NCBI GenBank assembly: GCA_031367705.1
Contig: JANLQI010000360.1
Location: forward strand, 3,012-67,011
Direction: 5' to 3'
DNA length: 64,000 nt
Source of the DNA: Saprospiraceae bacterium
Lineage (GTDB): Bacteria; Bacteroidota; Bacteroidia; Chitinophagales; Saprospiraceae
The notes under the pieces are model-generated. The model was not told where the DNA came from. It searched no databases and worked only from the letters and a program-made list of their open reading frames with translations. Positions within the stretch are counted from its first letter, which is position 1, and each line of letters opens with the position of its first letter. Positions 1 to 64,000 of the stretch are shown here, piece after piece. The position numbers and the translations under genes were made by a program.

Positions 1-912
1 TTTACGTTATTATTTGAAGCATACGCTATGAGCTTAATAGAATTAGAAATGCCTGTGTCGAATGTGGCAAAATTGGTAGATGAATATGACCAACGCATTT
101 GGTCAATTTTTCATCATCATATTGCCATTGCCCAAGCTCATACAGATTACACAAACATTAAAGAAGTGGGCATTGATGAGACGAGCCGCAAAAAAGGACA
201 TGATTACGTGACAGTAGGTGTTGATTTAGAAAAACGCCGTGTTTTTGATGTTCAAACAGGCAAAGACAGTGCTTGTGTTGAACGGCTCGGTGAATTTTTA
301 GACCAAAAAGGGTCTCCTAAAGCAGAAGTGACACAAGTCTCTATTGATATGTCACCTGCTTTTATCAAAGGTTGCACCGACACTTTTGCCAATGCAGCCC
401 TCACATTTGACCATTTTCATGTCACCAAAGAAGTCAATAAAGCACTTGATGAAGTCCGTAAAATAGAACGTAAAGAAGCCAAAGAACTTAAAGGACACAA
501 ATATACTTTTTTGAAAAACCCACAATCACTAAACGATAAAAAAAGAGCTGAACTACAAGACCTTATTAAACTTTATCCAACGATTGGCGAAGCCTATCGG
601 CTTAAAGAACTTTTCCGTGAGTTCTGGACAATGGACGATGTGACTAAAGCCGAAATCTTTTTAACGGATTGGTGTGTGCAAGTCACTAAATCTAAAATCC
701 AACCCATGATAAAAGCCGCTAACACTATCAAAGCTCATTGGTCAGGTATTATTAATTTTATTCAATCTAAAATCTCTAACGGTATTCTTGAAGGTATTAA
801 TTCTAAAATCCAACTCGCTAAAAAAAGAGCCCGAGGGTATCGTAATGACAATAATTTCAAATCTATGATTTTATTTATTGCTGGTAAACTTAATTTTGAT
901 TACCCATTATAA
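1..912 (+). CDS. ISL3-family DDE transposase, 5'-truncated by the window edge
   Basis: Frame 1 has no stop from base 1. It contains GIDETSRKKGHDYVTV, FDHFHV and the C-terminal AKKRARGYRNxxNF...IAGKL pattern typical of DDE_Tnp_ISL3. Confidence 0.85.
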   Translation, partial: FTLLFEAYAMSLIELEMPVSNVAKLVDEYDQRIWSIFHHHIAIAQAHTDYTNIKEVGIDETSRKKGHDYVTVGVDLEKRRVFDVQTGKDSACVERLGEFLDQKGSPKAEVTQVSIDMSPAFIKGCTDTFANAALTFDHFHVTKEVNKALDEVRKIERKEAKELKGHKYTFLKNPQSLNDKKRAELQDLIKLYPTIGEAYRLKELFREFWTMDDVTKAEIFLTDWCVQVTKSKIQPMIKAANTIKAHWSGIINFIQSKISNGILEGINSKIQLAKKRARGYRNDNNFKSMILFIAGKLNFDYPL

Positions 913-925
913 GTCACGAAGAACC
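1..925 (+). mobile_element. ISL3-family insertion sequence, right-hand part (left part lies outside the window)
   Basis: The transposase frame is open to base 1. Bases 911-925, AAGTCACGAAGAACC, are the reverse complement of GGTTCTTCGTGACTT, which resembles the GGYTCTTCG-type ISL3 terminal inverted repeat. The element interrupts a PIN-toxin reading frame. Confidence 0.75.
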
Positions 926-928
926 TAA

Positions 929-1156
929 AATTCAGATCAAATCTCACCGACTTTTCGCTTTTTACTCATCAAAGACGACCCTGATGATGATAAATTTGTG
1001 GATTGTGCAGTAGCAGGAAATGCCGATTTCATTGTTTCTCACGATAAACATTTCAATATTTTGAAAACTATTGACTTTCCTATAGTCGAAGTCATATCAA
1101 TTGAAGAATTTAGAGAGATTTTGAACGAACAGATGGAATATTTGAGAGACATCTAA
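929..1156 (+). pseudogene. C-terminal fragment of a PIN-domain toxin gene, cut by the IS insertion
   Basis: Hand translation gives ...LLIKDDPDDDKFVDCAVAGNADFIVSHDKHFNILK...EEFREIL*, the usual C-terminal half of PIN toxin components. There is no N-terminal half and no start codon. The frame begins right after the IS end. Confidence 0.7.
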
Positions 1157-1262
1157 ATCCTTTCAAACCCCTTTACTCTTCATGAGAAATCAAGCATTTC
1201 TGACATTCAAAAGCCTTGCAATGTTCGTTGCAAGGCTTTTTTGTGGGTTTTACTGAGGGGGG
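1151..1262 (+). repeat. Boundary repeat copy A (~100 bp: conserved leader, 13-bp-stem hairpin, then TGTGGGTTTTACTGAGGGG)
   Basis: Near-identical to 2352-2450 and 3442-3552. The hairpin is AAAAGCCTTGCAA-TGTTCG-TTGCAAGGCTTTT at 1209-1240. Confidence 0.85.
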
Positions 1263-1317
1263 CGCTTCGATTAGATTTTTGTTCCAATGCACATTTGTTT
1301 TTACAAGAAATAGTCAT

Positions 1318-1325
1318 TATCTTTG
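1318..1325 (+). promoter_or_regulatory. Bacteroidota-type -7 promoter box TATCTTTG
   Basis: Matches the TAnnTTTG consensus. It lies 6 nt upstream of the tRNA-like element. The same TTATCTTTG box precedes the toxin gene at 2632. Confidence 0.45.
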
Positions 1326-1330
1326 TACTA

Positions 1331-2351: not shown

Positions 2352-2450
2352 TGTCTAAATCCTATCATATTCTTGCAAATCAAGGGCATCCTAATTCAAA
2401 AGCCTTGCAATGTTCGTTGCAAGGCTTGTTTGTGGGTTTTACTGAGGGGG
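2352..2450 (+). repeat. Boundary repeat copy B
   Basis: TGTCTAAATCC...TTCAAAAGCCTTGCAATGTTCGTTGCAAGGCTTGTTTGTGGGTTTTACTGAGGGGG. It aligns with copies A and C. Confidence 0.85.
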
Positions 2451-3424: not shown

Positions 3425-3441
3425 AAATACTGAGGGGGCTT

Positions 3442-3552
3442 TGTCTAATTCCTATCAAACCCTTTTGCCCTTCATTAGAAATCAGACATTTCTGACATTC
3501 AAAAGCCTTGCAATGTTCGTTGCAAGGCTTTTTTGTGGGTTTTACTGAGGGG
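3442..3552 (+). repeat. Boundary repeat copy C
   Basis: TGTCTAATTCCTATCAAACCC...AAAAGCCTTGCAATGTTCGTTGCAAGGCTTTTTTGTGGGTTTTACTGAGGGG. An additional motif copy precedes it at 3428. Confidence 0.85.
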
Positions 3553-3831
3553 TTATTCAATATACAAAGAACTTAAAGTTAATTCTTGAATAGCTGATTC
3601 TAATTCATTTTCTGTTGAATACCATTTTTTATCGTTTTTATTTGAAAATGCTGCCCAAAAATCATATTCAATTCTATCAATGCCTTCTAAAATGTATTGG
3701 TTTTTAGAATACCATGAAAGACGTTTAAATTCTGTTATTATACCTTTTACTTCTGTATAATTTCTAAATTGAAGCTTTGCTATTCTTTCCAAAAGTTCAT
3801 CTACTAATGGCTTAAACTCTTTCTCTGTCAT
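3553..3831 (-). CDS. Hypothetical protein (92 aa)
   Basis: ORF only; no recognisable motif. Confidence 0.4.
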   Translation of the reverse strand: MTEKEFKPLVDELLERIAKLQFRNYTEVKGIITEFKRLSWYSKNQYILEGIDRIEYDFWAAFSNKNDKKWYSTENELESAIQELTLSSLYIE

Positions 3832-5005: not shown

Positions 5006-5085
5006 ATTTGAATTTTAGAAAGACAAATATATGAAAGAATCTATGATTTAGAATTAAAAATCCCCCCCTCAGTAAAAACTGTGTT
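4944..5085. repeat. Direct repeat copy 1 (5' end and promoter region of the PLD-like gene)
   Basis: Aligns with 6281-6425: GCAGCTAACAAACAGGCTTGAATGTGTTCTTGGATATTTTCAAAATAAGCTTGGGTCT...AGAAAGACAAATATATGAAAGAATCTATGATTT. Confidence 0.85.
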
Positions 5086-6280: not shown

Positions 6281-6425
6281 GCAGCTAACAAACAGGCTTG
6301 AATGTGTTCTTGGATATTTTCAAAATAAGCTTGGGTCTTCCTATTTAAATTTTAGAAAGACAAATATATGAAAGAATCTATGATTTGAAAATAGAAAAAG
6401 CACCCCCTCCGTAAAACCTTGTTCT
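6281..6425. repeat. Direct repeat copy 2 (decayed; the ATG is lost)
   Basis: Starts one base after the DUF1016 stop codon. The CAT complementing the start codon in copy 1 reads CCT here. The motif copy is degenerate (CCCCCTCCGTA at 6403). Confidence 0.85.
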
Positions 6426-6767: not shown

Positions 6768-8978
6768 TCACCTACTATCCCAATGCTTCACATGCCAAAA
6801 AGGAATGTCCCAACTCAAATTAACATTGAAGCGAAATTCAAACTTTTTCAAGAAAACAGCATCATCGGTCACTTTGGACAAACGCGGTTGGGCTTGATAA
6901 CCCAAGCCGAGGTTTATAGGGCTGTTGAAGAGTCGCCCAAACATGATAAATAGCCCGGGCGAAAAGATATTGCTCAATTTTACTTTCGGAATACTGTCTG
7001 TTGTGTTCGTGAAGCGAAAACCTGCGATAGCACCGACATCCACCAAACTGGCGAAAAACTGAATGGTCTTTGGCGTGAAAAAGTCGCCAATTTTCTGTTT
7101 TTTACTGAGGGGGTAGTGCCGTTGGTTTTTTAAACCATAACTGAGGTTGATGCCAATAGGCGCAGCAATGCTGAAATAACCCGCGCTGTCATTTTGCCTA
7201 AACGTATTTTGTAGTCCAATATAACTGTTGATACTCAACAACCAGCCTTTTTCTTTGATATGTGTACCACCAGACGGTGTCATCGTGCTTTCTAAAAGTT
7301 CGGCGACGGCATCGCTGCTTTGTGCCAACACCATCGAAGCAGCAAACGAACTGTATTTGATGAATTTTAGAATGCCTGTATATTCCAAAGGCTTTTTTCC
7401 AAGCGAATCGCCGTCCACATACAGTTTTTCGATGACCATTGGTTTATTCTCCTTCATAATGTATGTGCCAGAAAACGATTTGTATTCCCGCACAGGCACC
7501 ATGTTGTTGGCACTATTGGGCTGATAAAAAGTATTCAAAGTGTCAATTCTGATAAAGTTTTTACCTTCTTTCACATACATCGGTCTTGAGTCAAAGGCTT
7601 GCACCAATTCTGCAATGTGTTGCACGGCAGCGTGGTATTCGCGTCCTTTCATTTCGGCATAAATGCGGGGCAGCATTTCAGCGACATAAATGCCTTTGTA
7701 CCACGTGCGTGGCAAAGCGGTTTCGGGTTCTAAAATATCTTTAATGGTAGGTGCAAATTTGACCAATGACAATATGTTTTCGTAGGAAGAGACCATTTTA
7801 TCCCAATAGAATTTTTCGTCATTTCCTTGAGCCAAACGCATTTCTTTATTCGCCATTTCTATCATATTGACACGACTTATCAGACCTTGAACATAGTTAC
7901 GCATTTTGTAAAAATTGTCCTTTTTGTCGTATAAACCATTGATAAAATGCCGTAAAGTCTGTCCATTCTGAAAAGTTATCGGTTTTTTATTGTCGTCAAC
8001 GGCTAATTGGTAAACCGTTCCCATCCAAATTTGAGCCCCCAAAGCATCACCTTTTACAAGCAGATTCAAACTGTCCAAACCGTTTATCCAATAATGCGTC
8101 GAATCGGCGGGGTTTGAAGACCTAAAACTGGTCGAAATGAGTTGAATCGTTTGCAGTCCTGCCCTCAAATCCAGCCCTTCGCCTTCATCGAAAGCTTCGC
8201 TGAAATGTATGTTTTCGATGATGTGACCAGGGTGTTGATTGCGAATTAAACCGTCTGCAAATTGCGTAGCTGTTGTCAAAAAGTCTCGTCCTGTTTGATT
8301 GCCTTTGAAGGCTTTGGCGTACTTTTCTGTTTCTAAAAGTTGGGTGGTATTGGCAAAAACATTGGCTAAATCTTCTTCCATTTTTTGGCGCAAACCAGCG
8401 ATGTATTGTTCAAACACATAAATATCTTTATCCATCAAAGCCAAGCCGCCAGAAGTGTTTGGAAACAGGGTTTTCAGTTCGAGACTGTTGTCCATTTCCT
8501 TTTTCATTTTTTGAAAAAACACCACGTTTAGGTCTTGTTTGAAGCGTTTGACAATGATTTTTGCAAAGGCATCGGCAAAAATAGTCGCGTTTAAATTGCC
8601 GACTTTGGAGGCAAAAGACTTTTTCCCGCCTGACCCAACACCTCTGTCGCCACTGAACATACTGATGGGGTCAGAAAATCCCCAAAAGTTATCAACATCC
8701 AAGGCATTGTACATGAAGTCGTTGTCTCTAAAGGCATTTTGAATATCTTGAATTGTTATATTTTTCGACATTTGCTGAGTCTCAATCAAGTAATCCGCAA
8801 GCGTTTTATACATACTCTGAGCTTGTTCGCTCGAATGTTTGTCTATTTTGCGATAAGCCTTAATCGAATCAGCCAAACGGAGCGAGGCATTATAAACAGG
8901 CACAACAGGTGGTTTTTGTGCCACCGATTGGGTCATAAATAATAGCAAAAAACTGAAAAGGAGTGTATATTTTATCAT
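6768..8978 (-). CDS. Secreted hypothetical protein (736 aa)
   Basis: N-terminal signal peptide MIKYTLLFSFLLLFMTQSVAQ. Its start overlaps the stop of the upstream protease gene by 4 nt. Confidence 0.6.
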   Translation of the reverse strand: MIKYTLLFSFLLLFMTQSVAQKPPVVPVYNASLRLADSIKAYRKIDKHSSEQAQSMYKTLADYLIETQQMSKNITIQDIQNAFRDNDFMYNALDVDNFWGFSDPISMFSGDRGVGSGGKKSFASKVGNLNATIFADAFAKIIVKRFKQDLNVVFFQKMKKEMDNSLELKTLFPNTSGGLALMDKDIYVFEQYIAGLRQKMEEDLANVFANTTQLLETEKYAKAFKGNQTGRDFLTTATQFADGLIRNQHPGHIIENIHFSEAFDEGEGLDLRAGLQTIQLISTSFRSSNPADSTHYWINGLDSLNLLVKGDALGAQIWMGTVYQLAVDDNKKPITFQNGQTLRHFINGLYDKKDNFYKMRNYVQGLISRVNMIEMANKEMRLAQGNDEKFYWDKMVSSYENILSLVKFAPTIKDILEPETALPRTWYKGIYVAEMLPRIYAEMKGREYHAAVQHIAELVQAFDSRPMYVKEGKNFIRIDTLNTFYQPNSANNMVPVREYKSFSGTYIMKENKPMVIEKLYVDGDSLGKKPLEYTGILKFIKYSSFAASMVLAQSSDAVAELLESTMTPSGGTHIKEKGWLLSINSYIGLQNTFRQNDSAGYFSIAAPIGINLSYGLKNQRHYPLSKKQKIGDFFTPKTIQFFASLVDVGAIAGFRFTNTTDSIPKVKLSNIFSPGLFIMFGRLFNSPINLGLGYQAQPRLSKVTDDAVFLKKFEFRFNVNLSWDIPFWHVKHWDSR

Positions 8979-9796
8979 AGTATTGCGGTTAAATTAAGTG
9001 TTATGTTTTTTTTCTTAAAGGCATCAATGACTTCAGATATGGGCATGACCAAAGTGCTGTAATCACTATCGGAAAATACGACCCCTATCAAAGCGTTGTC
9101 AGAAACCCGCAAAAGCCACGAACCACTATCACCTTGTGCTGAAATCTTTTTAGCTTTTCTATCATTTAAAATATCAGAAACAAAAATGGCATTTTCGTAT
9201 CGCCCCAATTTCCATGGGCCTTCTTGGTTTATTTTTCTAATGACACCTTTCGCTTTTGTTTTAATTCTATCATTAAAAAAACAGACTTCTGTACCGAGTT
9301 CAAGGTCTTGAATTTCCACAAATTTAGTAGGTGAACCTATCTTTTCGTTACCGAATTTATCGGTCAATTCTATCAATGCAATGTCTAATTTGCTATTGAT
9401 AAAGGCTGTTTCTGCATTAAAAACACCAATTTTATCGCCTTTTTCAGAAATCACAACGAAAGATTCTTCGGGCGAAAAAGTATTAAAATTTTCGTTATTT
9501 TGTTTGACTACATGACAACAGGTGACACCATAATGAACACCTTTGTCGGACACCAAAACGCCGCCCAGAGTGCCTTTATCGTCTTTTCTATGTTCATTGG
9601 CAATGAGCATCCCTGCAAATTTATATTCATTTATTACTGCTGTTAGGCTCGCAATCGCAGTTTCAGTCAGACTGAAAGAGGGCATTGCTTCAATACTTCG
9701 AGAGTCGGGCATAAGAAAGGTTGGGTTTTCCCTTGATTTTTTAGCTTTTTTCATTTTTTTCTTTAGTTTTCTTGGTAATCGTTTTCGTTTAGCCAT
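8975..9796 (-). CDS. Trypsin-like serine peptidase with a Lys/Arg-rich N-terminus
   Basis: Candidate catalytic triad: His in VTCCHVV, Asp in LDIALIEL, Ser in AQGDSGSW. No obvious signal peptide; the N-terminus is MAKRKRLPRKLKKKMKKAKKS. Confidence 0.7.
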   Translation of the reverse strand: MAKRKRLPRKLKKKMKKAKKSRENPTFLMPDSRSIEAMPSFSLTETAIASLTAVINEYKFAGMLIANEHRKDDKGTLGGVLVSDKGVHYGVTCCHVVKQNNENFNTFSPEESFVVISEKGDKIGVFNAETAFINSKLDIALIELTDKFGNEKIGSPTKFVEIQDLELGTEVCFFNDRIKTKAKGVIRKINQEGPWKLGRYENAIFVSDILNDRKAKKISAQGDSGSWLLRVSDNALIGVVFSDSDYSTLVMPISEVIDAFKKKNITLNLTAIL

Positions 9797-10339: not shown

Positions 10340-10450
10340 TTCTAATCATTTTATGCGCTGATAGTTGTCACCATACCCCCCTCAGTATTTTGCTACTTTT
10401 GTGCAAATCATTTACTATAACTTAGGTATTAACCATAAAAATGAAAAAAT

Positions 10451-11281: not shown

Positions 11282-11358
11282 GTGAATAAGAATGTTGTAA
11301 AAAACATAAAAACGCTCAAAAATACTGAGGGGGGTATCTTTTTTTTTACTTTTGAAAC

Positions 11359-12689: not shown

Positions 12690-12790
12690 TTGGGGTTGAA
12701 AATGCCCCCCTCAGTATTTTATAGTAAATCAAATGACGGTATGATTGTCAATCATCCCGTCATTAATCTGTTAAAAACGTATAAGAAAAC

Positions 12791-14510: not shown

Positions 14511-14550
14511 GAATTAGGAATTAGGAATTAGGAATTAGGAATTAGGAATT
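14511..14550. repeat. Heptanucleotide tandem repeat, (GAATTAG) about 5.7 copies
   Basis: GAATTAGGAATTAGGAATTAGGAATTAGGAATTAGGAATT, located 10 nt upstream of the thioredoxin-fold gene start. Confidence 0.9.
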
Positions 14551-14709
14551 TTTTAAGTCTATACTGAGGGGGTGGCTTTTACTACAAAAAATGATATTTT
14601 TAATGATTTTTGCAACAAAGTTACATACATATTTGTCACAGAGTTGTGTTTTTAAAACAACCTTAACATCAATCAAAAAATAGTCATTCATAAAAAATAG
14701 TCAAAATCT

Positions 14710-15279: not shown

Positions 15280-15354
15280 AAAATGAAAAATGAAAAGTGA
15301 AAAGTGAAAAGTGGTGTCACCCAACTTTTCACTTTTCATTTTTCACTTTTCATT
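15276..15354. terminator. Bidirectional terminator built from GTGAAAA/GTGAAAAG words
   Basis: The left arm GTGAAAAATGAAAAATGAAAAGTGAAAAGTGAAAAGT pairs with ACTTTTCACTTTTCATTTTTCACTTTTCATT. It overlaps the 3' ends of the convergent ubiX and udk genes. Confidence 0.8.
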
Positions 15355-16008: not shown

Positions 16009-16102
16009 ATTGAGGTATTAAAATGCCCCCCTCAGTATTTCGACCACAAAAAGCACAAAATTTACAAACACAACTATATTTTTATTATTAAAAATGATTT
16101 TC

Positions 16103-19492: not shown

Positions 19493-19514
19493 GTTACAAT
19501 ATAAATAATTGAAA

Positions 19515-22451: not shown

Positions 22452-22475
22452 AATACTGAGGGGTACGATTTTTGT

Positions 22476-44660: not shown

Positions 44661-44672
44661 TTGTATAATTCT

Positions 44673-47024: not shown

Positions 47025-47112
47025 GCCCCTCAGTATTTTCACTCTTTCACCCTATTTTATTCGTTCTCTTACATTTTTTATCCACAAAAGTTTGGTTCAC
47101 GAAACACTTATT

Positions 47113-49851: not shown

Positions 49852-49896
49852 AAACGGCTAAATTGTTGATATGCAACAGTTTAGCCGTTTTTTTTT
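49852..49896 (+). terminator. Rho-independent terminator of pnp
   Basis: AAACGGCTAAATTGTT-GATATGC-AACAGTTTAGCCGTTT followed by a T-run. Confidence 0.85.
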
Positions 49897-50001
49897 ATGA
49901 TTTGTTGGACAATTTTCGTTTTAGAAAATAAGAATCAGTTTTGGTTATTCTGAAGAGTTTTTGTTTTGGATAAAAAAAAGCATTTAGGCGTTTGTGGACG
50001 G

Positions 50002-51003
50002 CTAAATGCGCTTTTTTACTGAGGATGTACTTTTATGTATTTTGATTGATTTATTTTCCTCTACTATAATCGTATCACCGCAATAATGGCTATAACTACC
50101 ACTGATTTCAGAATCTGAATATAATAAAGTTATGCTATCTTTAATCTTATAAAAGTAGGCATTTAGATTATGTTTATATAATCCATCCTTGCTTATTGGA
50201 TAGTTTTTATAAATTTCTTTGTTATATTTTGGACTCATTGCTTTTATCAAGGCTTTTTCTACATCTAAAAAAATAGTTTGTTTTGATGGTATATTTATTC
50301 CTAGTATAGCTTCTACCATATCCTCGATTGGAGAATCATTATCAAAACTATTTATTGAAATATTGTCTTCAATCTTAAAAAATAGTATTGCTATTTCATC
50401 TTTGGGTATTGAACCTGTATAAATAGGTTCTTCTAATGCCAAAATGTCTTGTAGCGTTTCATGCCCTGATAATCGTTTCCAGATGTCTTGATTTGTAGCC
50501 TTGCCAACATACAGGACAGTATATTTTGTAAACTCTTTTAAATCCCCTTTGATTTCAGCATTAAAATAACCTTTCCAATAGTTTTGCAGAAACTTTTCAG
50601 GCGAAAACCAAATTTTAAACTTATCATATTCAAGAAGTTTTATACCTTGAATATTAAAAAATGGCATTTTAGATAAGTCATTTTTAGCTTCGCTTGAACC
50701 CACACACAATACCACTTCTTTAGACAAGTCTTCAAGGAGATTTTTTTGGTAAACAAGAAATGAGCATTGTAAAACATGAGGATTCCCTTTTTGCCTAATT
50801 TCAAAGGATAATTTAACATTATCTTTATACGACTCGGAGCATATATTATCAAACCTTAATTCACCTCTTTGAACAATTGCATAAAGGCTACTATCATTTA
50901 ATGCTTTATGAATTGAAGTATCTTTTTTTAGTACTGTAAAATCATAAGCACTTAAAGGGCTATATGCTAATTGTAAGTTAGAGATTAGGTATTTATTTTC
51001 CAA
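50002..51003 (-). CDS. Hypothetical protein with a GIY-YIG-like nuclease core in its C-terminal half
   Basis: YTVLYVGKATNQDIWKRLSGH...EKALIKAMSPKYNK fits the (G)IY-YVG...R...H...E..LI....P..N spacing of GIY-YIG modules. The gene is very AT-rich. Confidence 0.45.
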   Translation of the reverse strand: MENKYLISNLQLAYSPLSAYDFTVLKKDTSIHKALNDSSLYAIVQRGELRFDNICSESYKDNVKLSFEIRQKGNPHVLQCSFLVYQKNLLEDLSKEVVLCVGSSEAKNDLSKMPFFNIQGIKLLEYDKFKIWFSPEKFLQNYWKGYFNAEIKGDLKEFTKYTVLYVGKATNQDIWKRLSGHETLQDILALEEPIYTGSIPKDEIAILFFKIEDNISINSFDNDSPIEDMVEAILGINIPSKQTIFLDVEKALIKAMSPKYNKEIYKNYPISKDGLYKHNLNAYFYKIKDSITLLYSDSEISGSYSHYCGDTIIVEENKSIKIHKSTSSVKKRI

Positions 51004-51005
51004 TT

Positions 51006-51539
51006 TTATTTTTTAAATAAATTATTTATTTCCTTAGAAGTTTCAAAGAATGTTACTAGTAATTTTGAATAAGAAGGGGGCTCAGCATCAGCTGTATATG
51101 AACCAATAAAAGGACTAACAGCACGAGGATCTTTAAATGTGAAGCGAATAGTTTGAATATCAATATTTCTTAATTTATTTATTTCTTCCAACGTTAAATT
51201 ATAGAGAGAGATTGTTTGTTTATTGAGATAGTCTCTCATTCCTTTATCCGTACATTTAATAAATGTGCCGTCGTCAAGTATCAAAGTTATTACACCTTGA
51301 AATCTTTCTTCGTATGGAGAGTTCATAGCCAACATCAAGTATCCACCTTTATTTCCATTTTTGGCTAAAGTAACTTCTAATCCATCGGCACTTAGTCCTA
51401 GCCATTGACATGCATCGCATTTAAAAACAAATGTTGAGGTAGCCTCAAACTTTTGGTTACCATGGTAGATATAGTATTGTGCGGAACATTGTGCTGTGAA
51501 AAACAACATTATGACAATCGAAAAGATAATTTTTTTCAT
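51006..51539 (-). CDS. Secreted hypothetical protein (177 aa)
   Basis: Signal peptide MKKIIFSIVIMLFFTAQCSAQ. AT-rich, and 2 nt upstream of the GIY-YIG-like gene. Confidence 0.5.
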   Translation of the reverse strand: MKKIIFSIVIMLFFTAQCSAQYYIYHGNQKFEATSTFVFKCDACQWLGLSADGLEVTLAKNGNKGGYLMLAMNSPYEERFQGVITLILDDGTFIKCTDKGMRDYLNKQTISLYNLTLEEINKLRNIDIQTIRFTFKDPRAVSPFIGSYTADAEPPSYSKLLVTFFETSKEINNLFKK

Positions 51540-51843
51540 TTCTTAATTTTAATTATTTAATGCCGCCAACTTGCGGATAGTGAGACTTTTTAGGAATTGA
51601 TTGACGGGAATATCCAATCAATCAACAAAATTACATTTTAAAAATAAACAAAAAAACATTCTTGTAAAAATCTGATAATTAATTTGTTAGCACATGTATA
51701 AAACACATTCCAATATGTATAAAACCAATAAAAAAGCCGATTGACCTTAAAAATCAATCGGCTTTTAACATTCAAACAGCCGAAAAGGGGCTTTATACTG
51801 AGGGGGTACTTACTTCTTCAAAGCCGCCTTCGAAAACAAATAT

Positions 51844-53168: not shown

Positions 53169-53999
53169 TTAATTTAAGAAAATTTTAGACGTGTAAGGTG
53201 GAATAATGCTGCGCTCTTTAGCCATATCAAACAAGGTCGTCACAGCCGCTCTTCCTTCATCTCCTAAGCCCTCGGTAAAATGATTGACATACAAGTCGAT
53301 ATGTTTTTGTCTCACCGTTTCATCCATCTCCTGTGCATGTTGCGCCACAAAATCATAACTCGCTTGCGGATTGTTAAAAGCATATTGAATGCTGCGCCGC
53401 ATCACGCGTTCCATTTTTTGCTGAACGTCCAAGGGTAAATCACGTCGAACAACGATGCCGCCTAAGGGAATGGGTTTGTTCGTTGTTTTTTCCCAAAATT
53501 CGCCTAAATCCATGAGTTTAATCAAGCCATGGTTTTGGTAAGTAAAACGGTTTTCATGTATGATAACACCTGCCGCAACATCCCCCCTCAGTACAGCGCC
53601 TTCAATGTCGTGAAAAACATATTCTTTTTTGCTTTGCGCCTCTGGATAGGCTAAACTGAATAAAAAATTAGCTGTCGTATAAGTGCCTGGAATGGCGATA
53701 ACTGATTGATTAATAGTCTTTTCTGCATCTTGCGATTTTGCAATAAGAAGCGGTCCAACACCATTGCCTAATGCGCTGCCCGATTCCAACAACGCATAAG
53801 CGTCAACGAGGTACGCAAAGGCATGATAGCTCAATTTCGTCACAGCCAATTCATGCCGCAAAGCACGATGATTCAATGCCTCGACATCTTCCATGACGAG
53901 TTCAAAAGTTAACCCCTCAGTATCAATCCGATTGTGAACCAGCGCATCGAAGATAAAGGTGTCGTTTGGACAGGGCGAAAAGCCGAGTGTTAGTTTCAT
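53169..53999 (-). CDS. mqnD: 1,4-dihydroxy-6-naphthoate synthase (futalosine pathway)
   Basis: MKLTLGFSPCPNDTFIFDALVH... is the typical MqnD start. Start chosen at this Met. Confidence 0.85.
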   Translation of the reverse strand: MKLTLGFSPCPNDTFIFDALVHNRIDTEGLTFELVMEDVEALNHRALRHELAVTKLSYHAFAYLVDAYALLESGSALGNGVGPLLIAKSQDAEKTINQSVIAIPGTYTTANFLFSLAYPEAQSKKEYVFHDIEGAVLRGDVAAGVIIHENRFTYQNHGLIKLMDLGEFWEKTTNKPIPLGGIVVRRDLPLDVQQKMERVMRRSIQYAFNNPQASYDFVAQHAQEMDETVRQKHIDLYVNHFTEGLGDEGRAAVTTLFDMAKERSIIPPYTSKIFLN

Positions 54000-54200
54000 T
54001 GACGTATTGATTAATGGTGACTGGGGATTGGTTATTTGTATATAAGTTTTAACCAATAACCAACAAAAATAGTCCAACTAATTGGCTGTCAATTAGTTGG
54101 ACTATATATGAGTAGTCTATTAGAAACAAATAAAAAGCTAAAATGATTTATAAAAAAGCCTTTTTAGCTAAAATATTTTGTCTTTGTACCTACAAGAAAA

Positions 54201-56260: not shown

Positions 56261-56297
56261 TTTTTATCCAAAAATACTAAGGGGGTATCTGTTTGCA

Positions 56298-57237: not shown

Positions 57238-58368
57238 TTACAAAAGCGACTGATAAAGTTTAATCCATTGTTCACCAATACCTTTATCGCTGAATTTTTT
57301 AACAAAATAAGACCCCCTCAGTATCATGTTGTTTCGCAAATTTTCATCATGCCATACGCGGTTTATTGCCGCTGCCAAAGCCTCAATATCATTCGGATTG
57401 ATATAAATTGAATCGGGACCTCCTGCTTCCTCAAAACATGAATCAACACTTGAAATAACGGGCGTGCCTGACCACAAAGCCTCGATAATAGGGATGCCAA
57501 AACCTTCAAAAAATGAAGGTAAAACAAATACACGTGCCTGTTTGTATATCGTAGGCAAATCCGTAAAATCTATTTTCGGTATAAAAACAACCCGTTTTTG
57601 CAGACCATTTTCAACAACATATTTTTTTACTTTTTGAAAATAAGCACTACCATCGCCAATTACAACCAAATTCGTATCTCCTTGATTCTCAAGGAGTTTT
57701 AAAGATTTTACTAAACCTAAAAGATTTTTACGCTCATTGACGGTGCCGACATAAAGCATAAATTGTGTAGGTAAATTGTATTTTTTTACAATTTCAGTAG
57801 GATTACTGAGGGGGTGGTTTTTATAAAAAATAGGGTCGCAAGACTGATAAATAACTTGAATCTTTGAAGGCTCAATTTTGTAAAAATCAATAATATCCCG
57901 TTTGGTTTGTTCACTAATAGCCACCACAATATCTGCTTGTTGGCAGGCTTTTTTGAACTTAAAAGAGTAAATTTTTCTATCAATAAATGGATAAAAAGAG
58001 GGATAACGTTCGTGAATGAGGTCGTGAATAGTCACCACAGTCCGTACATTTTTAGGGATACTGAGGGGTAGTTCATGCGACAAACCATGAAATATTTGAA
58101 CGTTTGATTTTTTAATATCTTTATTGATAGTATAGGAACGCCACAACGCGGGCAGTTTTTTGCCCAAACTCCCATTCGGCAAATGAATAGATACTGAGGG
58201 GTGCGTTGTAACCTTAGTCACACGTGGAATGTCGTTCAATTTAGGCGTAAAAAGATGGTATTCATTTTCTGGAAAATGAGTCGTTAAAGTCTCAATGAGG
58301 GTGCGGCTGTAATTGCCCAAACCCGTAAAATTTTGGAATGCTCGTTTAGCGTCATAACCGATTTTCAT
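57238..58368 (-). CDS. Family 4 (GT-B) glycosyltransferase
   Basis: ...VLPSFFEGFGIPIIEALWSGTPVISS... is the E-x7-E region. Confidence 0.85.
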   Translation of the reverse strand: MKIGYDAKRAFQNFTGLGNYSRTLIETLTTHFPENEYHLFTPKLNDIPRVTKVTTHPSVSIHLPNGSLGKKLPALWRSYTINKDIKKSNVQIFHGLSHELPLSIPKNVRTVVTIHDLIHERYPSFYPFIDRKIYSFKFKKACQQADIVVAISEQTKRDIIDFYKIEPSKIQVIYQSCDPIFYKNHPLSNPTEIVKKYNLPTQFMLYVGTVNERKNLLGLVKSLKLLENQGDTNLVVIGDGSAYFQKVKKYVVENGLQKRVVFIPKIDFTDLPTIYKQARVFVLPSFFEGFGIPIIEALWSGTPVISSVDSCFEEAGGPDSIYINPNDIEALAAAINRVWHDENLRNNMILRGSYFVKKFSDKGIGEQWIKLYQSLL

Positions 58369-58491: not shown

Positions 58492-59571
58492 ATGAATAAA
58501 ATAATTAAAAATATCAAGCGGCTTTTGACGCGACGCGCCATTTATCATGCGGCTTTTTGGTTTGTTTTGCTTTGCGTTCTGACGTTGAGCGAGATGCGGG
58601 GCGGTGATGCGAGTTTTATCCATTTTTTTTCAAATGAATTGGTCAATATCCTATTTTACGCGGCGATATATTATGCGAATAGCGAGTTTTTGATTCCTAA
58701 ATATTTGAAACCGAACAAGTTATGGACTTATCTCATTGGTTTAATAGGCGTTGCTTTGATATTGACGCCAATTAAGATTTTTATTCTATTTCAAAAATTT
58801 GCTAACTTTCCAGACGACCAGGACTTTTTGATTTCACATCAATCGTATTATTACTTGATTTCATTGATGACAGCGGGTATTTCCACGATTGTTAAGATTT
58901 CTTCCGATTGGTTGCGTCAAACACAGACGCAACGTGATTTAGAAACGCGTACGATGCAAACGGAGTTGAATTTTTTGAAATCTCAAATCAACCCACATTT
59001 TTTGTTCAATACCTTGAATAGTTTGTACGCTTTGACCTTGAAAAAGTCGGATGCCGCGCCAGAAGTGGTCATAAAGCTGTCGGAAATGATGCGTTATATG
59101 TTGTATGAATGTAATGAGCCACAAGTACCCCTCAGTAAAGAAATCAATTATATCCGAAATTATCTCGATTTGGAACGGTTGCGCCATAAAAATTTGGACA
59201 TAAAATTTGAGGTGGAAGGCATTGTTGGTGATTTAAAAATCGCACCTTTGATTTTCATCGCCTTCATTGAAAATGCTTTCAAACACGGTGCAAGCAACCA
59301 TATTTCAGATGGTTTTGTGCATATTCACGTTTATTTGGATGGTGAGGAATTGAATTTATATGTTGAAAATTCTAAACCTGAACAACAGCCCACACAAGAC
59401 CATCGCAGAAGTGGCGGCATCGGTTTGGTGAATGTTAGGAGACGACTTAATATTTTGTATAAAAATAATTATAACTTAGAAGTGCACGACAAGCCCAATA
59501 CTTATGGCGTTAATTTGTGGATGAAAATATTGCCAGATGCTGTAAGTCATTCGACATTGGTTAATAGTTAA
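58492..59571 (+). CDS. LytS/YehU-type sensor histidine kinase
   Basis: Multiple TM segments, then the LKSQINPHFLFNTLNSLYAL (His_kinase) motif and an ATPase domain, GGIGLVNVRRRL. Confidence 0.9.
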   Translation: MNKIIKNIKRLLTRRAIYHAAFWFVLLCVLTLSEMRGGDASFIHFFSNELVNILFYAAIYYANSEFLIPKYLKPNKLWTYLIGLIGVALILTPIKIFILFQKFANFPDDQDFLISHQSYYYLISLMTAGISTIVKISSDWLRQTQTQRDLETRTMQTELNFLKSQINPHFLFNTLNSLYALTLKKSDAAPEVVIKLSEMMRYMLYECNEPQVPLSKEINYIRNYLDLERLRHKNLDIKFEVEGIVGDLKIAPLIFIAFIENAFKHGASNHISDGFVHIHVYLDGEELNLYVENSKPEQQPTQDHRRSGGIGLVNVRRRLNILYKNNYNLEVHDKPNTYGVNLWMKILPDAVSHSTLVNS

Positions 59572-59673: not shown

Positions 59674-60411
59674 ATGAAAGTAATCATCGTTGACGACGAA
59701 CCTTTGGCATTAGATGTCATGGAAACTTATGTTTCTCGAATGCCCAATTTAGAGCTTTTGGCACGCTGTAACAATGCTTTTGAAGCCAATGAAGCTTTAA
59801 AAAACAATGATATTGATTTGATGTTCCTCGATATTCAAATGCCGCAATTGACGGGTATTGATTTTTTGAAAACATTAAAAACACCGCCTATGGTCATTTT
59901 TACAACGGCTTACCAACAATATGCTGTTGAAGGCTTTGAATTGAATGCCATTGACTATTTGTTGAAGCCGATTTCGATGGATAGGTTTATGAAAGCAGTA
60001 AACAAAGCGAGCGAACAGTATGATTTACACCATCAAGAAGCTAAAAATGGCGTAAATACTGAGGGGGTAGCCGAACCAAAACCTGACTATATTTTTGTGA
60101 AAGCCGACAAAAAACTGCAACGTGTAAAGTTTTCTGATATACTTTATATTGAGGGTTTGAAGGATTATGTCATCATTAGAACCGAAACGGGGCGTATTAT
60201 TTCTCTGCAAACGATGAAAAGTTTGGAAGACAAATTGCCTGTCGCTCAATTTGTGCGTGTTCACCGTTCTTTTATTGTTGGCATTGATAAAATTCATGCG
60301 ATTGTAGGAAATATGGTTGAAGTTATTGAAAAAGGAGCAGCCAAACATTTACCGATTGGCAAAAACTATCGTGATGAATTGTTGGAGATGATTGAAAAGC
60401 ATAAACTTTAA
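59674..60411 (+). CDS. LytTR-family response regulator
   Basis: Receiver domain (VIIVDDEP, DLMFLDIQMP, DYLLKP) plus a LytTR domain (...ILYIEGLKDYVIIRT...VHRSFIV). Confidence 0.9.
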   Translation: MKVIIVDDEPLALDVMETYVSRMPNLELLARCNNAFEANEALKNNDIDLMFLDIQMPQLTGIDFLKTLKTPPMVIFTTAYQQYAVEGFELNAIDYLLKPISMDRFMKAVNKASEQYDLHHQEAKNGVNTEGVAEPKPDYIFVKADKKLQRVKFSDILYIEGLKDYVIIRTETGRIISLQTMKSLEDKLPVAQFVRVHRSFIVGIDKIHAIVGNMVEVIEKGAAKHLPIGKNYRDELLEMIEKHKL

Positions 60412-61732: not shown

Positions 61733-62290
61733 ATGAATCAGAAAGTACAGTCTTTATGGGAAAAATTGGAACAAGACCGCTTGTCGTTGTTTCAATTTTT
61801 GGAAAAACAGGACCCCTCAGTATTGAACAAAAAACCTGCCCCTGATAAGTGGTCAGTCAATCAAAATATTTTTCATCTCATCGGTGCGGAATCTGCATCG
61901 ATGGCTTATATGAAAAAAAAATTGAGTTTTGGAACGGATGATTTACCACAAGCGGGTTTTAAAAGTCGTTGGCGAAGGTTCATGTTGCGGGCTGCTTTTG
62001 CTTTGCCTTTAAAATTCAAAGCACCGCCACAATTAGATAAGATTCCTGACGATTTGAATTTTGAAGAATTGAAACAACGTTGGGCATCGTTGCGTGCAGA
62101 ATATTATGATTTTTTGAAGGATATGCCTGATACAATGGTTACTGCCGAACTCTGGCGGCATCAGATTGCAGGAAAAATGACCATTTTGCAAATGATTGAC
62201 TTTTTTGAAGACCATGTGAATCGGCATAAAAGCCAAATAGAAAGAACTTTGGTAATGGTGAATAATTTAATGGTGAATGGTGAATGGTGA
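61733..62290 (+). CDS. DinB-family protein
   Basis: Four-helix-bundle pattern with His motifs (IFHLIGAE, FEDHVNRHKSQIE). Confidence 0.65.
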   Translation: MNQKVQSLWEKLEQDRLSLFQFLEKQDPSVLNKKPAPDKWSVNQNIFHLIGAESASMAYMKKKLSFGTDDLPQAGFKSRWRRFMLRAAFALPLKFKAPPQLDKIPDDLNFEELKQRWASLRAEYYDFLKDMPDTMVTAELWRHQIAGKMTILQMIDFFEDHVNRHKSQIERTLVMVNNLMVNGEW

Positions 62291-62387
62291 ATAATTTAAT
62301 GGTGAATGGTGAATAATTTAATGGTGAATGGTGAATAATTTAATGGTGAATATAGCTAAGTTTCACCATTCACCATTCACCATTCAC
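62254..62387. terminator. AATGGTG-word tandem array (22-bp unit, about 3.5 copies) plus inverted arm; convergent terminator
   Basis: AATGGTGAATGGTGAATAATTT repeats begin inside the DinB gene 3' end. The right arm TTTCACCATTCACCATTCACCATTCAC abuts the ferredoxin gene stop. Confidence 0.85.
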
Positions 62388-62714
62388 TCAAACTTGTTCA
62401 GGTGCTAAACGTACCACCAAACCATCAATTTCTTCGTGCATTTTGATTTGACAACCTAAACGGCTGTTATCTTTGACGTGCGTTGCTTGGTCAAGCATTG
62501 CCCATTCATCGTCGGTTGGTTCAGGTAGGTCGTGTTCACTTTCGACATACACTTGGCAAGTCGCACACAAAGCCATGCCGCCGCACACACCTTCAACGGG
62601 TAATTCGTAGCTTTTACAAACTTCCATCAAACTTAAAGGTATGCCCAATGGGACTTCTAAATCGTGTGCTTCGTCGAAGCGGTCAATGACTGTGATTGTT
62701 ATGTTTTCTTTCAT
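62388..62714 (-). CDS. [2Fe-2S] ferredoxin (adrenodoxin/putidaredoxin type)
   Basis: Cys ligand pattern CGGMALCATCQV...C. 108 aa. Confidence 0.9.
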   Translation of the reverse strand: MKENITITVIDRFDEAHDLEVPLGIPLSLMEVCKSYELPVEGVCGGMALCATCQVYVESEHDLPEPTDDEWAMLDQATHVKDNSRLGCQIKMHEEIDGLVVRLAPEQV

Positions 62715-62726
62715 TATTTCGTTTTT

Positions 62727-62772
62727 GAATGGGCGTTATCCATTGTATTTTTTCAATGGGCGTTACCCATTG
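62727..62772. promoter_or_regulatory. Two copies of a 19-bp palindromic box between the FNR and ferredoxin genes
   Basis: GAATGGGCGTTATCCATTG (62727-62745) and CAATGGGCGTTACCCATTG (62754-62772). The second has perfect 7-bp arms, CAATGGG/CCCATTG. The centres are 27 bp apart. Confidence 0.5.
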
Positions 62773-62842
62773 CTAACACATTACGCCTTTTCAAGGCTAT
62801 CTGTTAATCATTATACATTATCAACTATCAGTTATCCACTAT

Positions 62843-63847
62843 TTAAAGACCATCTATACCTGTAACAGTCGTGTATTTGAACGATAGTTTTTTATCGGGA
62901 TAAACGATTTTGAAAGCCGATTGAACCGCTAATGTTGCTTCATGGAAGCCGCACAATATCAATTTCAATTTGCCGGGATACGTATTAATATCACCAATGG
63001 CAAAAATGCCTTTTTCGCTGGTCGCATAATCGAAGGTATTGACCTCAATGGCATTTTTATCAATCGCTAAACCCCAATCGCCAATAGGACCGAGTTTTGG
63101 CGAAAGCCCAAAAAGTGGCACAAAATGGTCTGTTTTTTTATGAATCAACCCCTCCGTATCGTGCTTGATAACGACTTCGTCGAGTACGCCGTTGCCGTTT
63201 AGACCGATAACTTCGGATTGTGTTACGACTTTTATTTTACCTGCATCGCGCAAATGCATGACTTTTTCAACGCTGTCCAATGCGCCTCTAAATTCGCTGC
63301 GTCTGTGGATTAAAGTGAGTTCATCAGTTAAGTCAGCAAGGTATATTGACCAATCTAAGGCAGAATCACCGCCGCCAGAAATGACAACTTTTTTACCACG
63401 ATACAATTCAGGGTCACGCACAATGTACTCAACGCCTTTGTCTTCAAATTGAGCAATGTTCGCAATCGGCGGTTTGCGGGGTTCAAACGAACCTAAGCCA
63501 CCTGCGATGAAAATGACAGGTGCAGTGATTTCCGTACCACGTGCAGTCGTAAGTTTAAAATGTCCGTTTTCTAATTTTTCAATGCTTTCTGCCCGTTCGC
63601 CTAAGGTGAAAGAGGGTTTGAACGGCTCGATTTGTTGCATCAAATTTTTGACCAAATCACCCGCCAATACTGAGGGGTAGCCTGGAATATCGTAAATGGG
63701 TTTTTTCGGATATATTTCCGACAATTGACCACCGACTTGCGGCAAGGCATCAATCAAATGGCAACGCAGTTTTAACAAACCCGCTTCAAAAACAGCGAAT
63801 AAGCCAACAGGACCTGCACCTATGATGAGAATATCTGTTGAAATCAT
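62843..63847 (-). CDS. Thioredoxin-reductase-like ferredoxin-NADP+ reductase
   Basis: DILIIGAGPVGLFAVFEAG...VGGQL (FAD), VVISGGGDSALDW (NADPH), GIFAIGDI. Same strand as, and directly upstream of, the ferredoxin gene. Confidence 0.85.
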   Translation of the reverse strand: MISTDILIIGAGPVGLFAVFEAGLLKLRCHLIDALPQVGGQLSEIYPKKPIYDIPGYPSVLAGDLVKNLMQQIEPFKPSFTLGERAESIEKLENGHFKLTTARGTEITAPVIFIAGGLGSFEPRKPPIANIAQFEDKGVEYIVRDPELYRGKKVVISGGGDSALDWSIYLADLTDELTLIHRRSEFRGALDSVEKVMHLRDAGKIKVVTQSEVIGLNGNGVLDEVVIKHDTEGLIHKKTDHFVPLFGLSPKLGPIGDWGLAIDKNAIEVNTFDYATSEKGIFAIGDINTYPGKLKLILCGFHEATLAVQSAFKIVYPDKKLSFKYTTVTGIDGL

Positions 63848-64000
63848 TATTTTTTAAGATGTTGAGTAAAAAGACCAAAGATATTAAGACAACAATAAAA
63901 ACGCTAAAAGACTGCAAAATTAGAATATTTGCGTACATTACTAAATGACATGAATCACTAATTCGTAAGGAATTTAAGCATTGGGGTTGTCTTAAACACT

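Follow-up and report, generated by a model that had tools for sequence, protein, structure and literature searches.

What maintains one short word, repeated with almost the same spelling, in the genes and spacers of an otherwise ordinary stretch of bacterial DNA? The question is raised by 64,000 nucleotides of a Saprospiraceae bacterium (assembly GCA_031367705.1, contig JANLQI010000360.1, positions 3,012 to 67,011 of the forward strand), referred to here at its full length as the window, in which an initial annotation made by eye had noticed the word ACTGAGGGG and likened it to the DNA uptake sequences (DUS) of Neisseria and the uptake signal sequences (USS) of the Pasteurellaceae. Such sequences serve as the chief natural model in which to study how self-preferring uptake evolves, as well as molecular drive and 'bacterial sex', and to our knowledge they are documented only in two proteobacterial families. 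Here we describe the extended word, W-T-ACTGAGGGG-G, its spread through a clade of Saprospiraceae and their phages, and the evidence that it may be a clade-specific signal for DNA uptake and recombination.

A hyper-abundant 12-nt word

An exact search of both strands found ACTGAGGGG 53 times in the window, with 32 copies on the plus strand and 21 on the minus strand. This is the number that had been counted by eye, and each copy lies within 0–3 nt of the position first listed for it. The excess over chance claimed in the initial annotation also holds, since 100 dinucleotide-preserving shuffles of the window yield a mean of 0.09 copies and a maximum of 2, and Markov models of order 0–4 predict 0.1–1.2 copies; the order-5 figure is inflated because the word's own 6-mers feed the model. 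The word exceeds Markov or control expectation by about 500–800-fold. Together with its overlapping sub-words it supplies the top 8-, 9-, 10-, 11-, and 12-mers of the window, above all poly-A/T words, and nearly all G-runs of at least five in the window are part of it.

Aligned in a common orientation, the 53 copies give a non-palindromic consensus of about 12 nt, W-T-ACTGAGGGG-G/T, with T at position −1 in 50/53, A or T at −2 in 49/53, and G or T at +9 in 51/53. The G-run has a length of 4 in 15 copies, 5 in 20, 6 in 14, and 7 in 4, so that the word was correctly described at the outset as T-preceded and A/T-flanked with a run of four to seven G. Information content is at background outside about 12–13 nt, with only a weak T-rich stretch at +13 to +17. 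Copies are spaced more evenly than a Poisson process would place them (coefficient of variation of the gaps 0.75, compared with 0.98 in simulation, p~0.01), and the largest word-free gap is 3.5 kb where 5.4 kb is expected.

Over-representation is concentrated in the exact word. In a pooled set of 124 copies from 148.5 kb on six host contigs, the exact 10-mer occurs 115 times, 821-fold above expectation, and variants with one mismatch are 4.8-fold enriched, a drop of about 170-fold. Near-matches at two to four mismatches have observed/expected ratios (O/E) of 0.5–0.8; these expectations are approximate, being based on permuted control words, and for a word with a G-run the background may thereby be overestimated.

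A clade-restricted word with a dialect

The window was assigned to the Saprospiraceae through its polynucleotide phosphorylase (PNPase). Among 80 species-representative loci, a hyper-abundant dispersed word was found in just two. One, L001 (97% PNPase identity, 93% nucleotide identity), has the same word, with 5 copies in 4.25 kb, and the other, L002 (69% PNPase identity), has the variant word ATACTGGGGGG. Comparable words were sought and rejected in the 78 other Saprospiraceae/Bacteroidota loci, where the frequent 10-mers are local tandem arrays. Tandem or interspersed arrays of this kind stand near pnp in Saprospiraceae/Lewinellaceae at L006 5863–6705, L022 4809–6690, L068 13348–14508, L004 5637–5990, L023 1342–1708, L034 8106–8203, and L076 3270–3483; their periods lie between ~7 and ~160 nt, C-runs or inverted units occur in some, and they are unrelated to the word.

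The limits of the clade were set with a graded series of PolX homologues and the contigs that carry them. Two ENA contigs with 100% PolX identity each contain 8 copies, L135 within 6.9 kb and L136 within 6.6 kb. Copy numbers are 17 in 21.7 kb at 85% PolX identity (L143, GCA_043744455.1), 22 in 21.7 kb at 83% (L137, GCA_016787525.1), 11 in 21.7 kb at 72% (L138, GCA_031424115.1), and 16 in 15.2 kb at 69% (L140, JGI 3300037309, GC 43%). The nearest sampled relatives, at 63% (L141) and 61% (L142), each have 0 copies in 21.7 kb. Five lineages, the most distant at 69% PolX identity, thus have the word; they have 36–43% GC and probably span several genera. The dialect ATACTGGGGGG is real: L245, a 16.8-kb contig of the L002 lineage, carries it 11 times and the main word 0 times, while in L247, whose PNPase is 75% identical to that of L002, the main word is found 7 times and the dialect 0 times. 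Overall, 9 word-rich loci were found among at least 120 metagenome loci matched, and the DNA of the clade examined amounts to ~210 kb from hosts and ~120 kb from phages.

Copies made by substitution and retained

The initial annotation had proposed aligning orthologous genes to see how copies arise, and alignments of PNPase and PolX contain substitutions, some of them changing amino acids, and no word-sized indels at the orthologous sites. In PNPase, the LTEGV specified by the copy at 48483 corresponds to LNEGI, LQEGV, or LSDNI in orthologues, and the alignment there has no indel. The loop insertion that holds a near-copy at 48969 is older than the word, and this near-copy is one G/C change away from the perfect copy in L001. 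At column 1307 of the PolX codon alignment, the outgroup encodes (I/V)-L-R-G with the common codons ATT/GTT TTG CGC GGA, while four word-bearing lineages encode I-L-R-G as ATA CTG AGG GGG; the word there results from six synonymous changes that introduce rare codons. Outside column 1307, A-to-T and E-to-S replacements are seen; at column 1680, for example, GCT GAA GGT (AEG) has become ACT GAG GGG (TEG), so that an amino-acid change was accepted. As judged from these alignments, copies arise via point substitution, and an origin by insertion, or as the footprint of one, was rejected.

Once formed, copies persist. Of the 26 window copies that lie in alignable orthologous DNA (68–93% identity), 20 are retained exactly, compared with 4.8 expected from control 9-mers at equal divergence (p=1.6e-10). 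Retention is 10/12 at 82.6% identity, where 23% is expected, and 5/5 at 74.5% identity, where 10% is expected, and intergenic copies are likewise conserved. Conservation is bimodal, because the sites that are not conserved mostly differ by 4–6 bases.

Drive on DNA rather than on peptide

Genes contain 36 of the window's copies, 19 in sense and 17 in antisense orientation, and spacers contain 17, close to the split of about 35 and 18 estimated by eye. The initial annotation reported that the word is read in many frames, as TEG, LRG, PLS, PSV, and PQY, and all five were found (12, 7, 9, 6, and 2 copies, respectively). These are all of the stop-free combinations of frame and orientation; the sixth is empty because the word's own TGA is a stop there. 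Within the window, TEG occurs 14 times and PLS 13 times, and the exact word encodes 12 and 9 of these, respectively, compared with ~0.5% predicted by codon usage, and the codons required (ACT, GAG, GGG, CTG, and AGG) are all minor in the window. The five tripeptides are also 2.5–5-fold more frequent than amino-acid composition predicts, and control tripeptides are not enriched. Because TEG and PLS use the exact word so far above codon expectation, the drive acts on DNA and not on peptide. The same claim had been made from frame occupancy, and it is borne out by the 12/14 exact-word use in TEG and by the six-change synonymous recoding in PolX.

Position, polarity, and inverted pairs

Intergenic DNA holds a 2.2-fold excess of copies in the window (p=0.001). 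In the pooled set, genes have 0.65 copies/kb and spacers ~1.8 copies/kb (~2.7-fold more), alike for convergent, divergent, and tandem spacers, and the motif is no longer in intergenic than in genic copies. The equal density in all spacer types indicates that density tracks relaxed coding constraint, as neutral drive predicts. Enrichment at gene ends, which had been noted in the initial annotation, was found in the window, where 10 of the 17 intergenic copies lie at most 45 nt past a stop codon (4.1 expected, p=0.002), but it is weaker in the relatives (11/37 compared with 6.6 expected), and orientation is irrelevant to it.

None of the contigs is polar, with strand counts of 32/53, 13/22, 6/11, 6/16, and 9/17. 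The 32:21 split had been taken to mean that the word is not strongly polarised, and the pooled count of 70/119 agrees, being consistent with 0.5 and rejecting 0.75 at p=1e-4, so that the word is polarised neither by replication nor, with 19 sense and 17 antisense copies, by transcription. Inverted pairs of the word are infrequent, with 6 in 5 fetched loci among a few hundred copies and none inside the 64-kb window, and they typically lie between convergent genes or just past a stop. The pair directly 3′ of pnp in L247 has a perfect 20-bp stem (−37.7 kcal/mol, z=−8.1), and by predicted folding such pairs form terminator-like hairpins.

Phages that carry the word

IMG/VR was scanned with 14-nt forms of the word, so that the phages were picked by the word itself and represent word-bearing ones only. 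Tailed-phage contigs, Mu-like and other, carry 0.6–1.0 copies/kb, a host-like density. UViG_3300037309_000133, from the same metagenome as L140, is a Mu-like myovirus with a MuB-type transposition protein, Mu-type portal and F protein, sheath, and baseplate, and has 26 copies in 26.5 kb. There are 19 copies in 22.8 kb of UViG_3300037882_004998 (terminase, tape measure, endolysin) and 18 in 21.7 kb of UViG_3300048691_000223 (terminase, ParB-methyltransferase). The 76-kb phage IMGVR_UViG_3300020050_013619 (L121/L096/L428), which encodes a DNA polymerase exonuclease subunit, a helicase, an HNH endonuclease, a D5-like protein, and a DNA methyltransferase, has 13 copies in 21.3 kb. Two viral scans found no dialect-rich viral contigs. 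Three related viral contigs (L182, L234, and L244; GC ~42%) each have 2 copies of the main word and 1 of the dialect, a low density, and may be phages with a shorter or mixed host history.

Temperate phages of the Pasteurellaceae, Mu- and BcepMu-like ones among them, have been shown to build up USS until host-like saturation is reached; large lytic phages are USS-poor (Szafranski et al, 2019; PMC6776037). Loading of the Mu-like phage therefore parallels the USS system, and phage loading as a counter-argument to uptake was given up.

Copies and other features of the window

Copies were located by exact search and an open reading frame (ORF) map; the map takes long ORFs greedily and gives 60 genes and 85% coding DNA. 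Pfam identifies PolX, PNPase, type IX secretion system (T9SS) cargo proteins, a TonB receptor, two-component systems, uridine kinase, and ISL3 and YhgA-like transposases, a gene content that is ordinary for Bacteroidota. A known RNA family was ruled out for the window by an Rfam search, which gave no matches.

The first copies accompany a local repeat. Three direct repeats of a 63–109-nt element lie at 1152–1267, 2394–2456, and 3444–3559; each consists of a perfect hairpin (AAGCCTTGCAAtgttcgTTGCAAGGCTT) followed by TTTGTGGGTTTT and then the word, and similarity stops right after the word. The repeats are 1189 and 1103 nt apart, with 1–2 small ORFs (DUF3800, unknowns) per interval and an ISL3 transposase adjoining, a layout resembling that of a cassette array or of a terminator module in repeated form. 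The intergenic copies at their 3′ ends are TACTGAGGGGGG at 1251–1262 (+), TACTGAGGGGG at 2440–2450 (+), and TACTGAGGGG at 3543–3552 (+), the last abutting the stop of 3553–3831(−). Also intergenic are TACTGAGGGGG at 3428–3438 (+), 4 nt after a stop, TACTGAGGGGGGG at 5062–5074 (−), TACTGAGGGGGG at 10376–10387 (−), 11323–11334 (+), and 12705–12716 (−), and TACTGAGGGGG at 14562–14572 (+); TACTGAGGGGG at 7103–7113 (+) is antisense in ORF 6768–8978(−). Further along, TACTGAGGGGGG at 15089–15100 (−) is antisense in a flavoprotein/UbiX-like gene, 14710–15279(+), and conserved in L143, the TACTGAGGGGGG at 15732–15743 (−), sense in uridine kinase 15343–15975(−), has 4 mismatches in L143, and the intergenic TACTGAGGGGGG at 16026–16037 (−) and TACTGAGGGG at 17262–17271 (−), antisense in nucleoside transporter 16222–17505(+), are both conserved there. 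Heptamer-like tandem runs, GAATTAG (~14520–14550) and TTCATCA (~16040–16075), stand in spacers beside the copies at 14563 and 16028, and ATTCATCATT is one of the window's frequent 10-mers. Neither the ISL3-family transposase at 1–912, cut by the window start, nor the YhgA-like one (Transposase_31) at 17578–18699 has a copy, which fits recent acquisition in a sample of just ~2 kb.

An extracytoplasmic function (ECF) sigma factor gene, 18907–19428(+), contains TACTGAGGGGG at 19192–19202 (−, antisense) and TACTGAGGGG at 19353–19362 (+, sense). TACTGAGGGGGGG is sense at 19723–19735 (+) in ORF 19509–20120(+) and at 20269–20281 (+) in ORF 20235–21122(+), and TACTGAGGGG is antisense at 21256–21265 (−) in ORF 21153–22451(+) and intergenic at 22454–22463 (+), 3 nt after a stop. 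The T9SS cargo gene 23950–25179(−) (Lcl_C) has TACTGAGGGGG in antisense at 24406–24416 (+), and its neighbour 25186–26769(−) (YHYH) has TACTGAGGGGG in sense at 25248–25258 (−) and, both in antisense, AACTGAGGGGGG at 25905–25916 (+) and TACTGAGGGGG at 26494–26504 (+). Intergenic copies follow in TACTGAGGGGG at 27250–27260 (+), 1 nt from the stop of 27261–28853(−), and TACTGAGGGGGG at 30752–30763 (+), which is conserved in L143, as is TACTGAGGGGGG at 32109–32120 (+), sense in response regulator 31625–32362(+).

Tandem paralogous genes for small membrane proteins at 34919–35834 both end in ...AWQEKEV and a stop, with a copy directly after each: TACTGAGGGGG at 34908–34918 (−), intergenic, 1 nt after the stop of 34919–35425(−) and conserved in L143, and TACTGAGGGGG at 35389–35399 (−), sense in ORF 34919–35425(−) and just after the stop of the paralogue 35400–35834(−). 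In L143 an IS200/IS605-type Y1 transposase gene (9188–9733, flanks to ~10000) stands in place of these two genes; it has its own GC-rich palindromes (GGGCGTTACCC...), unrelated to the word, and holds one copy of the word. Compared with L135 and L136, which are 99.88% identical to the window, 5 of 8 single-nucleotide differences fall within 43 nt (35481–35523), an anecdotal cluster that suggests a short gene-conversion or recombination tract.

PolX has four sense copies: GACTGAGGGGG at 36867–36877 (+; TEG), present in L137 and L138 and with 4–6 mismatches in L143 and L140; TACTGAGGGGG at 37188–37198 (+; TEG) in a variable loop, with partial matches in relatives (ATACTGAAAGG etc.); TACTGAGGGGG at 37616–37626 (+; LRG), exact in L143, L137, and L140, the outgroup encoding the same peptide via ATT/GTT TTG CGC GGA; and TACTGAGGGG at 37989–37998 (+; TEG), exact in L143, L137, and L138, with GCT GAA GGT (AEG) in L140 and the outgroup. 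A tetratricopeptide repeat (TPR) histidine kinase gene, 38655–40805(+), has TACTGAGGGGGG at 39686–39697 (+) and TACTGAGGGGG at 40754–40764 (+), both sense and conserved in L137, and a PorV-like gene, 40842–41987(+), has TACTGAGGGG at 41178–41187 (−) and TACTGAGGGGGG at 41635–41646 (−), both antisense and conserved in L143. TACTGAGGGGGGG at 43923–43935 (−) is antisense in ORF 43770–44660(+), and TACTGAGGGG is sense at 45122–45131 (+) in TonB receptor 44661–47024(+) and intergenic at 47026–47035 (−), 1 nt after the stop of that gene.

Around pnp, TACTGAGGGGGG at 47415–47426 (+) lies in the intergenic leader, GACTGAGGGGG at 48482–48492 (+) is sense in PNPase (LTEGV) and shared with L001, and the intergenic TACTGAGGGGG at 51796–51806 (+) is also shared with L001. 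A 103-nt stretch around 48483 is 100% identical to L001, which is anecdotal as a recombination signal. The segment from the pnp terminator to the next conserved block is replaced between these ~93%-identical genomes (window 49895–51625, L001 1610–4040), and the novel L001 segment starts 8 nt inside a word copy, a single anecdote for words at replacement junctions. The PNPase C-terminus (~49650–49832) has an unusual Gly/Arg-rich tail, ...GGGGGDRRGGGGGRDDRRGGGGGRDDRRGGGGGGDRRGGGGGGRY, before its stop.

The remaining copies lie in genes. A menaquinone biosynthesis gene, 53169–54077(−), has TACTGAGGGGGG at 53582–53593 (−) and TACTGAGGGG at 53913–53922 (−), both sense; GT4 glycosyltransferase 57238–58368(−) has TACTGAGGGGG in sense at 57313–57323 (−) and, in antisense, TACTGAGGGGG at 57804–57814 (+) and TACTGAGGGG at 58059–58068 (+) and 58192–58201 (+). 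TACTGAGGGG at 59128–59137 (−) is antisense in histidine kinase 58492–59571(+), TACTGAGGGGG at 60057–60067 (+) is sense in LytTR regulator 59674–60411(+), and TACTGAGGGG is antisense at 61813–61822 (−) in ORF 61733–62290(+) and at 63668–63677 (+) in oxidoreductase 62843–63847(−).

Copies with one mismatch are TACGGAGGGG at 6404–6413 (−) and 63149–63158 (−), TACTGATGGG at 8660–8669 (+), TACTGAGGGA at 27933–27942 (+) and 33278–33287 (+), TACTGAGCGG at 48968–48977 (+) in the PNPase loop, where L001 has a perfect copy, and TACTAAGGGG at 56275–56284 (+). The six degenerate copies listed in the initial annotation are real near-matches, five of them with one mismatch and the one near 50018 with two.

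What reads the word

The abundance, substitution origin, lack of polarity, and DNA-level drive support the original comparison with DUS and USS, and clade restriction, the dialect, positional conservation, inverted-pair hairpins, and loading of temperate phages are further hallmarks of that type; that the reader of the word is a DNA uptake receptor, and transformation the source of the drive, is what we infer. Cells of the clade would preferentially import double-stranded DNA fragments bearing the word, which a sequence-specific surface receptor would recognise, and homologous recombination of these fragments would give word alleles a transmission advantage, a molecular drive to which selection for conspecific DNA may add. 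The alignments show that ordinary point substitutions turn near-matches into the exact word where coding constraint permits, rare codons and even amino-acid changes being tolerated, and that copies are then kept for very long. Inverted pairs double as terminator-like hairpins, phages resident in word-bearing hosts acquire the word, and the preferred word has drifted to the dialect in one lineage.

Several observations weigh against uptake. The literature search found no description of natural transformation or competence in Saprospiraceae, and we are not aware of a receptor for DNA uptake having been described from Bacteroidota. The small sample of ~210 kb of clade DNA, window included, showed no genes for competence or pili. 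Two-mismatch variants are not over-represented (O/E 0.5, a figure that permuted control words may bias), unlike in DUS and USS genomes. Recently acquired DNA in Neisseria is without DUS (PMC2397512), and the comparison available here consists of the two word-free transposase genes (~2 kb). The 76-kb polymerase-encoding phage, with ~0.6 copies/kb, is a mild anomaly, since uptake drive alone would explain it poorly if it is virulent. Because transformation is undescribed in Saprospiraceae and two other classes of mechanism fit most of the data, we hold the reading of W-T-ACTGAGGGG-G as a clade-specific uptake and recombination signal, which is by analogy with DUS and USS, at about even.

More tentatively, and in place of an uptake signal, the 12 nt might mark the genome as 'self' for an undescribed, sequence-specific system of protection, repair, or conversion that reads or writes the word on any DNA in the cell; resident phages, including ones with replication genes of their own, would then conform to it, and it would represent a new class of genome-wide identity signal. 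In another reading, which we consider rather unlikely, an abundant host protein binds the word in cis on any DNA in the cell, either as a 'self' tag against a nuclease or defence system, akin to Chi in logic but non-polar, or as a nucleoid-organising site, so that direct selection keeps every copy and phages gain the word by mimicry. Very strong positional conservation, even spacing, and the very sharp drop from exact to one-mismatch copies suit such a site, as does host-like density in several unrelated phage types, including the 76-kb phage with its own replication genes. Loading of temperate phages, however, is equally expected under uptake (PMC6776037). Density follows relaxed coding constraint and is equal across spacer types, and Chi and KOPS (FtsK-orienting polar sequences), at 5–8 nt, are polar whereas polarity is rejected for the word. 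It also counts against such a site that no system is known to us in which an exact word of 12 nt recurs at ~1/kb in either orientation. A biased-repair ratchet, in which a methyltransferase or mismatch-processing enzyme converts near-cognates and the word is a mutational by-product, is distinctly unlikely. It would account for the substitution origin, for the depletion of near-cognates at two to four mismatches (O/E 0.5–0.8), as if consumed, and for the involvement of all replicons in the cell, phages included, and the highly iterated palindrome HIP1 links hyper-abundant words to methyltransferases (PMC4390886). HIPs, however, are palindromes with a methyltransferase site (PMC4390886); the word is asymmetric with ~12 specified positions, while methyltransferase and Vsr-type specificities cover 4–7 bp, no candidate enzyme was identified, and six independent synonymous changes at one PolX site resemble stepwise fixation rather than a single repair event.

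Biased transfer by another route followed by recombination, with a gene-transfer agent or transducing phage that prefers to package the word, would leave a population-genetic signature identical to that of uptake bias, and word-rich phage-type structural genes are common in these metagenomes. Known pac and cos recognition, however, needs one site per genome and not one per kb, no cluster resembling a gene-transfer agent was identified, and the idea is purely speculative; we regard it as very unlikely. Least probable of all, and rejected, is that the word is a mobile element, a polar motif, or an assembly artefact. Three copies do lie in the local hairpin repeat, a Y1 transposase gene adjoins PolX in L143, and there is a slight plus-strand excess (32:21); but two-thirds of the copies lie within ORFs that keep their frame, and the same copies stand at orthologous positions in independent ENA, NCBI, JGI, and Logan assemblies. 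A miniature inverted-repeat transposable element (MITE) or other longer element was excluded by flanks that are at background beyond ~12 nt in a logo of 124 copies and by orthologous differences that are substitutions only, the exception being the three copies in the local repeat. The search for a longer shared element, suggested in the initial annotation, found none, and its statement that flanks are unrelated stands for ~48 copies; it fails for those at 1252, 2441, and 3544 in the 63–109-nt repeat, and those at 34909 and 35390 follow tandem paralogues. Repetitive extragenic palindromic (REP) elements with their REP-associated tyrosine transposases (RAYT) were set aside because the word lacks palindromic symmetry, genes hold 65% of copies, and the sole Y1 gene is lineage-specific with other palindromes. 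A Chi- or KOPS-like signal was dismissed because co-orientation of at least 75% is rejected (32/53 in the window; 70/119 pooled, p=1e-4), and a HIP-type palindrome because the word is asymmetric.

If the uptake reading is true, this third independent case, in another phylum and in uncultured environmental bacteria with their own dialect and loaded phages, would mean that uptake sequences evolve repeatedly and are not tied to ComP-type pili. It would also predict natural transformability in Saprospiraceae and supply a defined sequence with which to equip DNA for genetic work in these organisms. Comparison of word-bearing genomes, the dialect lineage JBJOPA01 / JGI 3300044826, and word-free sisters such as GCA_038226035.1 and the 4-Mb contig of ERZ26858995 enables a search for the receptor, and the word is a sharp marker for contig binning and phage–host assignment, as for UViG_3300037309_000133 and L140 from the same metagenome. 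If the uptake reading is wrong, the alternative is a genome-wide 12-nt identity word that acts without a known mechanism, which would be categorically new and arguably more interesting.

Comparison with known systems

Abundant short repeats are known in several forms. REP elements and bacterial interspersed mosaic elements (BIMEs), with RAYT, and MITEs are likewise very abundant, but REPs are palindromic, intergenic, and 20–40 nt long, and MITEs are longer, with terminal inverted repeats and target-site duplications, whereas the Saprospiraceae word is 12 nt, non-palindromic, mostly genic, and made by substitution. Chi (RecBCD/AddAB) and KOPS (FtsK) are over-represented oligomers placed in genes through codon choice, as the word is, but they are 5–8 nt long, few-fold enriched, and co-oriented with replication, compared with ~800-fold enrichment and no polarity here. 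The cyanobacterial HIP1 (GCGATCGC) is closer, being hyper-abundant, spread by substitution, present in several coding frames, and clade-wide with variants; it differs in being an 8-bp palindrome with methyltransferase sites, where the Saprospiraceae word is 12 nt and asymmetric.

The closest parallels are the uptake sequences themselves. Like the Saprospiraceae word, the Pasteurellaceae USS (AAGTGCGGT core; Hin and Apl types) occurs about once per 1.2 kb, about two-thirds genic and evenly spaced, with word-encoded peptides enriched in the proteome, two dialects, and temperate phages, including Mu-like ones, loaded to host-like levels (PMC6776037). The USS differs in its AT-rich flanks, which extend the motif to ~29 nt where the Saprospiraceae word has just a weak T-run at +13 to +17, and in that a polymerase-encoding phage also carries the Saprospiraceae word. 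DUS have dialects, and the Neisseriaceae DUS (AT-GCCGTCTGAA and dialects), whose receptor is the minor pilin ComP, shares with the word a 12-nt non-palindromic form, a density of ~1/kb on both strands in genes and spacers, substitution origin, strong conservation, dialects in related lineages, inverted-pair terminators, and a ~100-fold fall in over-representation from zero to one mismatch. The corresponding drop is 82–92-fold in H. influenzae and N. gonorrhoeae (PMC1939737), of similar order to the ~170-fold drop for the Saprospiraceae word. The differences are that the sequence is unrelated, the phylum is Bacteroidota, two-mismatch variants are not enriched, and inverted pairs number only 6 among a few hundred copies. 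A full-text literature search found ACTGAGGGG just in eukaryotic primer lists and no uptake-type word reported for Bacteroidota, in line with the remark in the initial annotation. The measured genomic properties of the word match those of the Neisseriaceae and Pasteurellaceae uptake sequences, and by this analogy, as far as we have searched, the Saprospiraceae clade adds a third lineage to those that bear a DUS/USS-type genomic signature, a new one and the first from beyond the Proteobacteria.

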